3,437 bases of DNA from Escherichia coli (GTDB lineage Bacteria > Pseudomonadota > Gammaproteobacteria > Enterobacterales > Enterobacteriaceae), in the NCBI RefSeq assembly GCF_003334815.1, contig NZ_QOWO01000082.1; one strand, written 5' to 3'. The translations under genes and the position numbers were made by a program. Below are positions 1 to 3,428 of the stretch, in pieces. Each line of letters starts with the position of its first letter. The stretch's first letter is position 1. Below the pieces are notes generated by a model. It searched no databases, was not told the origin of the DNA, and was given only the letters and a program-made list of their open reading frames with translations.

Positions 1-73
1 CACATCCTGTCCCGTTTTTCAGGCCATTATAGCCTGTTATTTTTGTGCATCATAGTCTTATGCAGACGGCAGA

Positions 74-92
74 GGCAGGGCGCAGCCCTGCC
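74..92. other. Short GC-rich hairpin (8-bp stem GGCAGGGC / GCCCTGCC, 3-nt loop) upstream of the first gene
   Basis: Perfect inverted repeat read directly from the sequence. No adjacent U-tract on either strand, so it is not a canonical intrinsic terminator; role unknown. Confidence 0.3.
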
Positions 93-105
93 AGGAGTCA
101 GTTTT

Positions 106-117
106 TGATGATAAAAT
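106..117 (+). promoter_or_regulatory. Putative sigma70 extended -10 element (TGATGATAAAAT; TG-n-TAAAAT) for the 113-aa gene
   Basis: TG at 109-110, one nt, then hexamer TAAAAT at 112-117 (5/6 match to TATAAT). It lies ~34 nt upstream of ATG 151, followed by GGAGA (136-140). The same 12-mer recurs upstream of the HTH gene at 1953-1964. No convincing -35. Confidence 0.35.
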
Positions 118-144
118 CAGACTTCAACATGAAACGGAGAGAAA

Positions 145-486
145 GTGCCAATGGCTTCTAAAAAATTTTACTCAGATGATGACATCCAGCTGGCAAAAGC
201 TGCCTTATCGGAATTGCCGGACCTCACCGCTCAACGGAAAACATTGCGTGATTTTCTTGATGCCATTCGTGATGACATCATTGTCCTGGTAAGGACAAAG
301 GGTTATACACTGGCAGATGTTCGTGACACGCTTAAAAATGCAGGGTATGAAGTAGGAGAGAAGGCACTTCGTGACATTATTCGGGAAGCAGAATCGAAAA
401 AACCATCCCGCCGTTCTTCCTCTAAAACAGCACCTAAAAAGACAGATTCAGGCAGGAAAGATGGCATCGATATGAACAACAATTGA
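145..486 (+). CDS. Hypothetical small protein (112-113 aa) with Lys/Arg/Ser/Thr-rich C-terminal tail; possibly DNA-binding, function not recognised
   Basis: Open frame 145..486 ending at TGA 484-486. The GTG at 145 is only ~4 nt from GGAGA (136-140), so ATG 151 (spacing ~10 nt) is the more likely start. The tail KKPSRRSSSKTAPKKTDSGRK resembles tails of small nucleic-acid-binding proteins. No family confidently recognised. Confidence 0.6.
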   Translation: MPMASKKFYSDDDIQLAKAALSELPDLTAQRKTLRDFLDAIRDDIIVLVRTKGYTLADVRDTLKNAGYEVGEKALRDIIREAESKKPSRRSSSKTAPKKTDSGRKDGIDMNNN

Positions 487-503
487 TGTGACAATGTCAC
501 ATC
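485..503. promoter_or_regulatory. Perfect 19-bp palindrome GATGTGACA-A-TGTCACATC overlapping the stop codon of the 113-aa gene
   Basis: 9+1+9 inverted repeat verified base by base (485 pairs with 503 through 493 with 495). Typical of a dimeric DNA-binding-protein site or an RNA hairpin at the end of the mRNA. Confidence 0.4.
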
Positions 504-529: not shown

Positions 530-570
530 AAAAAAAAGCCCCGGCATAAATACCAGGGCTTTTCTGTTTA
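530..570. terminator. Bidirectional rho-independent terminator between the convergent 113-aa and 283-aa genes
   Basis: A-run (530-537), stem GCCCcGG (538-544) paired with CCaGGGC (553-559) with one internal mismatch, 8-nt loop, then TTTTCTGTTT (560-569). On the - strand the stem is followed by eight U. It lies exactly between two convergent stop codons. Confidence 0.6.
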
Positions 571-2549: not shown

Positions 2550-2699
2550 TCAGTGAATGACTTTTTTCAGTTCAGCTTCGGAAAGTCCGGTGGCCTGCTT
2601 AATCTGCTCAGGTGTCATCCCCATTTTCTGAAGCTGACGCGCAATGGCAAGGGCTTTTTCAAGCGCACCTTTCTGCTCAAGACGTTCTGCGATTGTCAT
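2550..2699 (-). CDS. Putative intragenic small protein (49 aa, RpnS-like) translated from an internal in-frame ATG of the Rpn gene
   Basis: Internal ATG at 2699..2697 in the rpn frame, preceded by GAGGAT (complement of 2706-2711) with 7-nt spacing. Product would be MTIAERLEQKGALEKALAIARQLQKMGMTPEQIKQATGLSEAELKKVIH. Consistent with reported intragenic antitoxins of Rpn nucleases (from memory). Confidence 0.45.
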   Translation of the reverse strand: MTIAERLEQKGALEKALAIARQLQKMGMTPEQIKQATGLSEAELKKVIH

Positions 2700-3428
2700 C
2701 AGTTTATCCTCATGCTGCGGCAGGCGCTCGGCCAGCGCCCGCATAAATTCCGGTGATACAGAGTCCCCTGCGTTAACGATGTAATGAATCAGAACACGCA
2801 CCTGCTCGTCTGAAATTTCCACCATGACCTGCGGGAGTTTGTCCAGCAGCTCCATCATGTCACGATGGCGGATATGCTTCATCAGCAGCGTCAGTGCGGC
2901 CATCCGGCGATGGTTCATGATTTCATTGTCATCAACGACAGTGATATCAACCAGCGGAAACGGCTTTGTGTATATTTTAGCCGCAAGTGACGGATTCTCA
3001 AAACAGTCCAGCCAGTTCATGCTGTACGGATACGGGCTGCGCTCACCATGATAGAACAGCACCGGAATCACCAGTGGCAACGTTTTGTGCTGCTCCAGAT
3101 GTCTCTGCATCGCCGCCACACTGTAACGTAACATGCGGAAAGGCATGTACAGATTTTCGGTGCTCTGGTGCTCGATGAGCGTATAAACATAGCCATCTTC
3201 ACCCCCGGTGGTTTTCACGCTCCAGAGGATATCGCTGGCGTACTGATGCAGGTCCGGCTCAACAAAGGTGGCGGGTTCCAGCTTCAGCGTGGACAGGTCG
3301 CACAACTGCCGGTACTCCGCCGGAAGATGCAGTTCCAGAAAATCTCTGGCGACGTCGGGATTCGCCAGGAACGACCGGAACGCGGCATCATGCGGCGTGG
3401 GCGTTGTGGTGTTTTTCTTCTTACTCAC
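2550..3428 (-). CDS. Rpn family recombination-promoting nuclease / YhgA-like putative transposase (PD-(D/E)xK nuclease), 292 aa
   Basis: N-terminus TPHDAAFRSFLANPDVARDFLELHLP and the core DILWSVKT...YVYTLIEHQS match the YhgA/Rpn family (Pfam Transposase_31-like) as I recall it. The C-terminal tail ...AERLEQKG...TGLSEAELKK is the typical Rpn tail. GTG start at 3428..3426 with GGAGG (complement of 3433-3437) 4 nt upstream. Gene is complete, but its promoter lies outside the window. Confidence 0.9.
   Translation of the reverse strand: MSKKKNTTTPTPHDAAFRSFLANPDVARDFLELHLPAEYRQLCDLSTLKLEPATFVEPDLHQYASDILWSVKTTGGEDGYVYTLIEHQSTENLYMPFRMLRYSVAAMQRHLEQHKTLPLVIPVLFYHGERSPYPYSMNWLDCFENPSLAAKIYTKPFPLVDITVVDDNEIMNHRRMAALTLLMKHIRHRDMMELLDKLPQVMVEISDEQVRVLIHYIVNAGDSVSPEFMRALAERLPQHEDKLMTIAERLEQKGALEKALAIARQLQKMGMTPEQIKQATGLSEAELKKVIH
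2706..2711 (-). promoter_or_regulatory. Internal Shine-Dalgarno (GAGGAT) inside the Rpn coding sequence, serving the internal ATG at 2699
   Basis: - strand reads GAGGATAAACTG-ATG; AGGA lies 7-8 nt upstream of the ATG, which is near-optimal spacing. Confidence 0.4.

Follow-up and report, generated by a model that had tools for sequence, protein, structure and literature searches.

YggA, encoded by the first leading-region gene of IncI1 plasmids, as a probable DNA-binding brake on the relaxosome operon

The open reading frame at positions 151-486 of the Escherichia coli DNA analyzed here (3437 bp, referred to below as the window) is yggA, which is divergent from nikA-nikB and is the first gene past the nick site. 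We think it probable that its product, YggA, is a small HTH-type DNA-binding regulator which acts at oriT to repress the relaxosome operon, and which is dispensable for transfer. This proposal draws on the position of the gene in every plasmid lineage examined, on the predicted fold of the protein core, on the DNA lying between the divergent nikA and yggA promoters, and on the published phenotype of a homologue in an IncM plasmid. The coordinates of the features discussed are collected in Table 1.

Table 1. Features of the oriT-proximal part of the window (strand: +, -, or. for neither)
Feature	Window position	Strand	Details
oriT nick region, cACATCCTG|TCCCG	1..15	+	predicted nic between 9 and 10; motif conserved in 5 lineages
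Perfect TATAAT, probable -10 of nikA (relaxosome operon)	26..31	-	columns ATTATA invariant in 5/5 aligned lineages
Conserved block TGTGCATCATAGTCTTATG, candidate regulator-binding site	46..64	.	between the divergent -10 boxes, over the expected nikA -35 region
8-bp perfect palindrome GGCAGGGC-gca-GCCCTGCC	74..92	.	overlaps the yggA -35; ~65 nt beyond the nick site
Predicted yggA promoter	88..117	+	-35 CTGCCA (weak), 18-nt spacer, extended -10 TGaTAAAAT at 109-117; consensus scan
Shine-Dalgarno GGAG	136..139	+	5 nt from GTG 145, 11 nt from ATG 151; read from sequence
Alternative in-frame GTG start	145..147	+	would add Met-Pro at the N-terminus
yggA core, residues 1-83	151..399	+	four helices, 9-20, 32-48 (kink 39), 54-63, and 70-82; family motifs L..LPDL and KGY
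yggA disordered basic Ser/Lys/Arg tail, residues 84-111, and stop TGA 484-486	400..486	+	pLDDT, composition
Bidirectional intrinsic terminator, common to yggA (+) and the convergent DUF4942 gene (-)	530..568	.	inverted repeat

Identity of yggA and properties of its product

The window covers the part of the leading region that adjoins oriT in an IncI1 plasmid. It is up to 99.9% identical to IncI1-type plasmids of E. coli, Salmonella, and Shigella, and matches to it were found in over a quarter of complete E. coli genomes (1548 of 5426). The gene order in NZ_CP070070 is trbC, nikB (-), nikA (-), the intergenic region, yggA (+, window 151-486), a DUF4942 gene (-), and an HTH gene (+), followed by an Rpn fragment (-), an Rpn nuclease (-), and then ardA, psiA, psiB, a parB-like gene, and ssb, all on the minus strand. 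The window protein is 98-100% identical to proteins labelled yggA or YggA, and the gene table of pESBL places 'Protein YggA' (Hp23) in the same location, adjoining oriT and NikA. The role of R64 yggA had not been studied, according to PMC6112013.

The protein has been named YggA (R64 nomenclature), Hp23 (pESBL), 'MobC-like', and 'Mobilization protein MobC', and its commonest name is 'molybdopterin-guanine dinucleotide biosynthesis protein MobC', which is carried by thousands of RefSeq and UniProt entries. The reading that YggA truly belongs to that pathway is almost certainly wrong. Its sole support is the product name in those thousands of records; no NCBIfam or Pfam model stands behind the name, scans of both collections gave no match to a model of the molybdopterin-guanine dinucleotide pathway, and the gene sits in a plasmid conjugation module. 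In addition, among relatives in AFDB the names 'Mobilization protein MobC', 'MobC-like', and 'YggA' alternate with the molybdopterin name, and their interchangeable use indicates that 'MobC' was wrongly expanded to give the molybdopterin label. The RefSeq name appears to have spread from a misreading of 'mobilization protein MobC'. The MobC accessory family itself, PF05713, was matched neither by YggA nor by any of 48 family members.

In all eight of the other lineages that were opened (IncL/M, Yersinia pGDT4, Tatumella, Leclercia, a Klebsiella IncFII/MPF_I plasmid, pTB502, E. fergusonii, and a metagenome contig), the yggA homologue was divergent from a NikA/MobA accessory gene and a MOBP relaxase, with 64-397 bp of intergenic DNA separating it from the NikA/MobA gene. 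Searches with tblastn found yggA in 3544 plasmid records, 3201 of which are typed as conjugative. The family is small (78 representatives at 50% identity among 1.84 billion proteins) and restricted to plasmids of Enterobacterales and some Pseudomonas. The plasmid accessory function that was among the suggestions of a preliminary description of this DNA fits these data, as the gene lies beside oriT in every lineage examined and disruption of a homologue derepresses nikAB-tra (PMC6112013).

The yggA reading frame runs on the plus strand from GTG 145 or ATG 151 to TGA 486 and encodes 113 or 111 residues, respectively; the RefSeq annotation is 151-486. The start had been called ambiguous in the preliminary description, and it is, with the two lines of evidence disagreeing. 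The Shine-Dalgarno sequence had been thought to favor ATG 151; however, its spacing (Table 1) favors GTG 145, and it is homology that favors ATG 151. An equivalent of GTG 145 was missing in five of seven more distant lineages, and the N-termini of nine lineages converged on M-(A)-x-K-K at the position equivalent to 151. Seven of these nine have their own Shine-Dalgarno sequence for that start, five of the seven without a nearby in-frame alternative, and in the five most informative lineages (pTB502, Leclercia, Tatumella, IncL/M, and Klebsiella) it lies 4-9 nt upstream. A close E. fergusonii variant has GTG at position 151 itself. The two candidate starts differ by two residues only.

The helix-rich core and the highly basic Ser/Lys/Arg tail previously described for this small protein were both recovered, the tail KKPSRRSSSKTAPKKTDSGRK as reported and the core as a helical model. 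AlphaFold2, supplied with a 48-sequence alignment, modeled the core at a pLDDT of ~90 and the tail at 55-62. Residues 84-104 include 8 K/R and 7 S/T and have a pI of 11.1, compared with 5.4 for core residues 1-83. Relative to a 63%-identical homologue the core had a dN of 0.21 and a dS of 3.3 (dN/dS ~0.06), and its dS was saturated relative to a 74%-identical homologue; for the first 12 codons of the tail dN was 0.68 and dS 0.47. These analyses confirmed yggA as a genuine gene, beyond a chance reading frame. The net charge over the first 20 tail residues was at least +3 in 35 of 48 diverse homologues, with a mean of +3.7 and a value of +7 in the window protein, i.e., the sequence of the tail is not conserved but its basic character is. 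The gene identity, conservation, synteny, fold class, and tail properties were shown by the present analysis.

Pfam and NCBIfam scans of YggA and all 48 aligned homologues identified no significant family. The YggA family profile matched the C-terminal DNA-binding domain of sigma-54 (E 2.7e-4, residues 27-76) and the DNA-binding domain of R388 StbA (E 0.034), and LuxR-type HTH domains were also matched. The sigma-54 (RpoN) domain was the best match of solved structure, extending over 50 residues that comprise helix 2, K-x-Y-S, helix 3, the turn, and helix 4. However, the RpoN-box ARRTVAKYR is absent from YggA, in which the aligned segment is GEKALRDII, and Pfam Sigma54_DBD had no match in the YggA family; the similarity is a local fold resemblance only. 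Foldseek returned nothing below E 0.4 from the PDB, the best hits being calmodulin-like helical noise, and family members alone from AFDB50. Based on the profile matches and the confident core model, we predict with moderate confidence that the core is an HTH-like DNA-binding domain, in which helix 70-82 is likely the recognition helix and runs directly into the basic tail. Nucleic-acid binding had earlier been suggested from the basic tail. Binding remains a fitting interpretation given the HTH-like core, but its basis has moved, as the conserved and selected part of the protein is the core and the tail is variable and disordered.

Promoters and candidate target DNA next to oriT

A 17-bp inverted repeat ends at window position 1 (positions 11962-12001 of plasmid sequence L001) and the nick motif lies 8 bp beyond it. 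We take this motif to be the RP4-type nick sequence, which in the R64 and RP4 literature is likewise 8 bp from a repeat. The oriT annotated in pESBL maps to window -68..14. With nic predicted between positions 9 and 10, the plus strand would be the one transferred and yggA would be the first gene to enter the recipient; both R64 yggA and pCTX-M3 orf35 have been described as the first gene of the leading region (PMC6112013). Because the sense strand of yggA is then the transferred strand, the gene could not be read from the incoming single strand, unlike the leading-region genes on the minus strand. A second short inverted repeat, GTCGGGGC-gaa-GCCCTGAC, was observed to the left of the window, adjoining the start of nikA (L001 11937-11955); it is almost invariant in five diverged plasmids and falls within the most conserved block of the oriT-nikA region.

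The TATAAT at 31-26 is probably the -10 box of nikA, and transcription from it would cross the nick site, by analogy with traJp of RP4 (PMC7314908). The conserved block at 46-64 does not differ between IncI1 and pTB502, a plasmid of 70% identity, and is almost the same in the plasmid of E. fergusonii; from its conservation and position we regard it as a candidate site for a regulator. The arms of the palindrome at 74-92 covary, being GGCAGGAC/GTCCTGCC and GGCAGTGC/GCACTGCC in other lineages with pairing kept (three lineages: GGCAGGGC, GGCAGGAC, and GGCAGTGC), and the palindrome folds at -18.3 kcal/mol (z -2.8). Its counterparts were found at L005 3912-3930 and in L008 and L009, with an invariant GACGGCA just upstream. 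This palindrome could be a dimer operator or a hairpin of the transferred strand, e.g., for termination or priming, and the covariation fits both. A protein bound between the two -10 boxes would occlude both -35 regions. Direct-repeat arrays of the StbA type were considered and rejected: one TGCATCAT at 47-54 resembles the stbDR consensus and occurs as a single copy.

The -10 box of the predicted yggA promoter is kept as TGATAGAAT in pTB502. A promoter motif had been described as common to yggA and the HTH gene, and it is present, positions 103-117 (TTTTGATGATAAAAT) and 1950-1964 (TTATGATGATAAAAT) being identical at 14 of 15 bases. Both copies hold the TGaTAAAAT extended -10 box, properly spaced from their genes, and the shared motif is essentially this box. 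A pair of such quality turns up in ~14% of block-shuffled windows, and upstream of yggA in pTB502 the -10 part alone is kept, whereas the HTH-gene promoter is unchanged; as chance is not negligible and the -10 part alone is conserved at yggA, we rejected a common operator. We read the two promoters as two of one type, both with an extended -10 box. The RNA of the terminator downstream of yggA folds at -16.5 kcal/mol (z -4.7) on the plus strand and at -23.4 kcal/mol (z -5.9) on the minus strand, with a U-run after each.

YggA as a candidate brake on the relaxosome operon

[quoted passage not shown] Disruption of this gene (orf35::cat) raised transcripts of nikA 40-fold, nikB 23-fold, and traH 80-fold, and increased mobilization of an oriT plasmid more than 200-fold while self-transfer remained intact (PMC6112013). 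The authors proposed orf35-dependent repression of unknown mechanism and saw no recognizable DNA-binding motif in the protein (PMC6112013), and strains lacking orf35 are in use as hyper-mobilizers (PMC7440800). Orf35 and the 'MobC' of IncL pOXA-48-like plasmids are clear homologues of YggA, the IncL/M homologue having 38.5% identity to it over residues 1-76 (tblastn). Like YggA they are encoded by the first leading-region gene, divergent from nikA, and have a core followed by a basic tail, although the tail sequences are unrelated. A further difference is that nikAB head the whole tra operon in IncL/M but form a separate operon in IncI1. Derepression in IncL/M would thus reach the secretion system as well, whereas in IncI1 any effect of YggA on self-transfer may be small. 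Orf35 is the only one of these proteins for which the regulatory phenotype has been measured, and its complementation was weak: restoring orf35 in trans in pCTX-M3 had a marginal effect (PMC6112013), such that the cat cassette may have acted in cis on the nikA promoter next to it. In a TnSeq screen of the IncI1 plasmid pESBL, transposon insertions in yggA had a neutral effect on transfer, and TraDIS of the I-complex plasmid pMS7163B found no conjugation repressor.

Based on these observations, we propose that the YggA core would recognize DNA within the ~80 bp that separate the two divergent promoters, those of nikA and yggA (roughly window 32-111), where its putative targets include the block at 46-64 and the palindrome at 74-92. 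The basic tail would lend non-specific affinity for DNA. Occupancy by YggA would repress the nikA-nikB relaxosome operon, and probably yggA as well, such that relaxosome expression would be kept low in established donors, and YggA would stand outside the essential transfer machinery. Direct DNA binding, the location of the operator, autoregulation, and the extension of the IncM phenotype to IncI1 are the elements of this proposal that we infer.

In gene layout, helix order, and a weak profile similarity, the closest analogue of YggA is TraK of the IncP plasmids RP4 and R751. NikA is known to correspond to TraJ, NikB to TraI, and the IncI nick region to that of IncP, and the layout of R751, traI (-), traJ (-), oriT, and traK (+), is that of yggA, with traK the first leading-side gene and divergent across oriT. 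TraK is needed for efficient RP4 transfer. YggA and Orf35, in contrast, were dispensable for transfer in published screens, which argues against functional equivalence in that respect. TraK is a relaxosome auxiliary protein, which in RP4 binds ~200 bp of oriT lying downstream of the traK promoter and represses traJp as well as traKp (PMC7314908). The alignment of the YggA family with one of 32 TraK sequences by hhalign had an E of 4.4e-4 and a probability of 33% over 46 columns centered on GY...I...L...G, and its score of 28.0 compared with a mean of 10.7 and a maximum of 20.6 for 150 column-permuted decoys. In an AlphaFold2 model of moderate confidence (pLDDT 65), TraK has helices at 5-18, 25-42 (kink 33), 47-57, and 64-76, followed by a long disordered tail; as modeled, this order of four helices with a kinked second helix and a disordered tail would be the topology of YggA offset by 6-7 residues. 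The tails differ in composition, that of TraK being Pro/Ala/Lys-rich and that of YggA Ser/Lys/Arg-rich, and traK is the first gene of an operon, traKLM, whereas yggA is transcribed as a single gene.

TraK proteins make up the Pfam family DUF5338 (PF17273), which YggA did not match and which two of the 48 family members matched weakly (best E 6.7e-3). When the YggA family alignment was used as a profile against 5.8 billion proteins, no PF17273 proteins were returned and no bridge to TraK or to any annotated family was seen. Because there was neither a significant Pfam match nor such a bridge, we have not filed YggA in the TraK family; it may be a remote TraK homologue, and by analogy it probably works in a manner comparable to TraK. 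In the literature searched, no paper making this link was found. We tentatively extend the comparison to a broader possibility, which we hold less firmly than the repressor role itself: YggA and its relatives may be the diverged counterpart of TraK across MOBP/MPF_I plasmids (IncI1, IncK/B/O, IncL/M, and others), a protein with an HTH core and a basic tail that assembles beside the nick, on its leading side, and brakes the relaxosome operon. As yggA is the first gene made double-stranded in the new host, it may also be a switch that re-imposes repression of transfer after entry.

The same parallel could be read in another manner, in which YggA is an architectural, TraK-type relaxosome accessory that coats or bends oriT-proximal DNA for nicking or strand separation, with repression as a by-product. 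The position of traK relative to an RP4-like nick region, the helix topology and tail, the hhalign match, and the auxiliary role of TraK in binding ~200 bp of oriT all speak for this reading. We consider it fairly unlikely, however, since insertions in yggA were neutral for pESBL transfer, orf35 is dispensable for pCTX-M3 transfer and its loss raises rather than lowers mobilization, and PF17273 was neither matched significantly nor returned by the profile search. A role mainly in the new recipient, where a StbA-like YggA would shut down or organize the expression of oriT and the leading region, or the positioning of the plasmid, during establishment, seems distinctly unlikely to us. The gene is the closest to the incoming 5' end and enters first; as all the leading-region genes with single-strand promoters are on the other strand, it would need double-stranded DNA and be expressed once the complementary strand is made, and an ssi/Frpo-type element ~1 kb away could prime synthesis toward it. 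YggA also resembles the DNA-binding domain of StbA, which represses leading-region promoters and modulates conjugation. However, the StbA similarity is weak, and no stability or establishment phenotype was seen in the pESBL TnSeq or pMS7163B TraDIS screens. StbA of IncW R388 acts in segregation together with StbB and has arrays of 9-bp direct repeats as its binding sites, whereas the yggA locus has no such stbDR-like arrays, no stbB neighbor, and no stability phenotype seen.

The preliminary description had also raised a nucleoid-associated or RNA-chaperone-like identity, and a generic protein of this kind acting through its tail would be consistent with the tail being basic and disordered and with the basic charge being kept across the family. 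It is nevertheless the helical core, not the tail, that is conserved and selected, and none of H-NS, HU/IHF, Fis, Hfq, or FinO/ProQ was found in the Pfam/NCBIfam results or among the top structural matches. The strict linkage of the gene to oriT and nikAB points to a local role, and we judge a generic function very improbable. The reading that we prefer is repression of the relaxosome operon by YggA bound at oriT, which would make it comparable in function to IncP TraK and IncW StbA.

The plasmids concerned, IncI1, IncK/B/O, and IncL/M (including pOXA-48-like plasmids), are among the principal vehicles of ESBL and carbapenemase genes. Should YggA be a repressor of the relaxosome operon, it would set the readiness with which co-resident small resistance plasmids bearing an oriT are mobilized. 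In the IncM system, loss of the homologue gave strains that mobilize 100- to 1000-fold better, and if YggA is the TraK-counterpart brake, its removal would be a general route to hyper-mobilizing helper plasmids of the IncI type. The yggA gene and the phenotype of its homologue are already published; what is added here is an assignment of the fold, the parallel with TraK, a candidate region for the operator, and a corrected annotation. The practical gain is that a widespread RefSeq and UniProt product name is shown to be wrong. Overall, these findings represent ordinary plasmid biology with a useful correction of an annotation.

Other features of the window

A perfect 9-1-9 palindrome, GATGTGACA-a-TGTCACATC, at 485..503 overlaps the yggA stop codon. 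In pTB502 the palindrome is retained although the sequence on either side is unrelated (L007 3995-4013; L008 3486-3504), and as an RNA hairpin it is unremarkable (z -1.9). A CRP site at this position was rejected, as the spacing is TGTGA-N5-TCACA and not N6. An exact 12-mer, GATTATGATGAT, occurs both between the yggA stop and the terminator (513-524) and in the HTH-gene promoter (1948-1959); ~0.35 such pairs are expected by chance, so it may be a chance occurrence.

The HTH gene (2000-2251, 83 residues) has its -10 box flanked by two copies of the palindrome AAAGTGAA-n-TTCACTTT, at 1896-1918 and 1965-1987, an arrangement that from its sequence would be typical of an autoregulatory operator. 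These palindromes are absent near yggA. A related arrangement with other half-sites, AAGTGCA...TGCACTT, precedes an XRE gene in the Leclercia plasmid (L005, ~7240-7330).

Upstream of the DUF4942 gene, a GC-rich non-coding stretch was observed on the plus strand at 1430-1900 (core ~1468-1796). As single-stranded DNA it folds at -113 kcal/mol, compared with -83 kcal/mol for shuffles (z -6.4), and two copies of 81-82% identity are present in the leading region, at L001 16337-16662 and 22684-23009, the latter upstream of ssb. These properties fit the known ssi/Frpo class 1 single-strand promoters of IncI1 plasmids. A RefSeq pseudo-CDS with an internal stop (1769-1966) within this stretch is probably spurious, and Rfam identified no RNA family in the window.

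Directly downstream of the gene for the full-length Rpn (YhgA-like) nuclease (2550-3428, minus strand) is a 68-residue reading frame on the same strand (2282-2488). It duplicates the C-terminal region of Rpn, starting with MTIAERL as does an internal MTIAERL of the nuclease, with 85% DNA identity between 2456-2488 and 2667-2699, and it contains a 12-bp tandem repeat (2397-2469) that encodes GFK(Q/E) units. The small C-terminal product of Rpn may here be encoded as a gene of its own, and in some records the reading frame is annotated as a member of the RpnC/YadD family.
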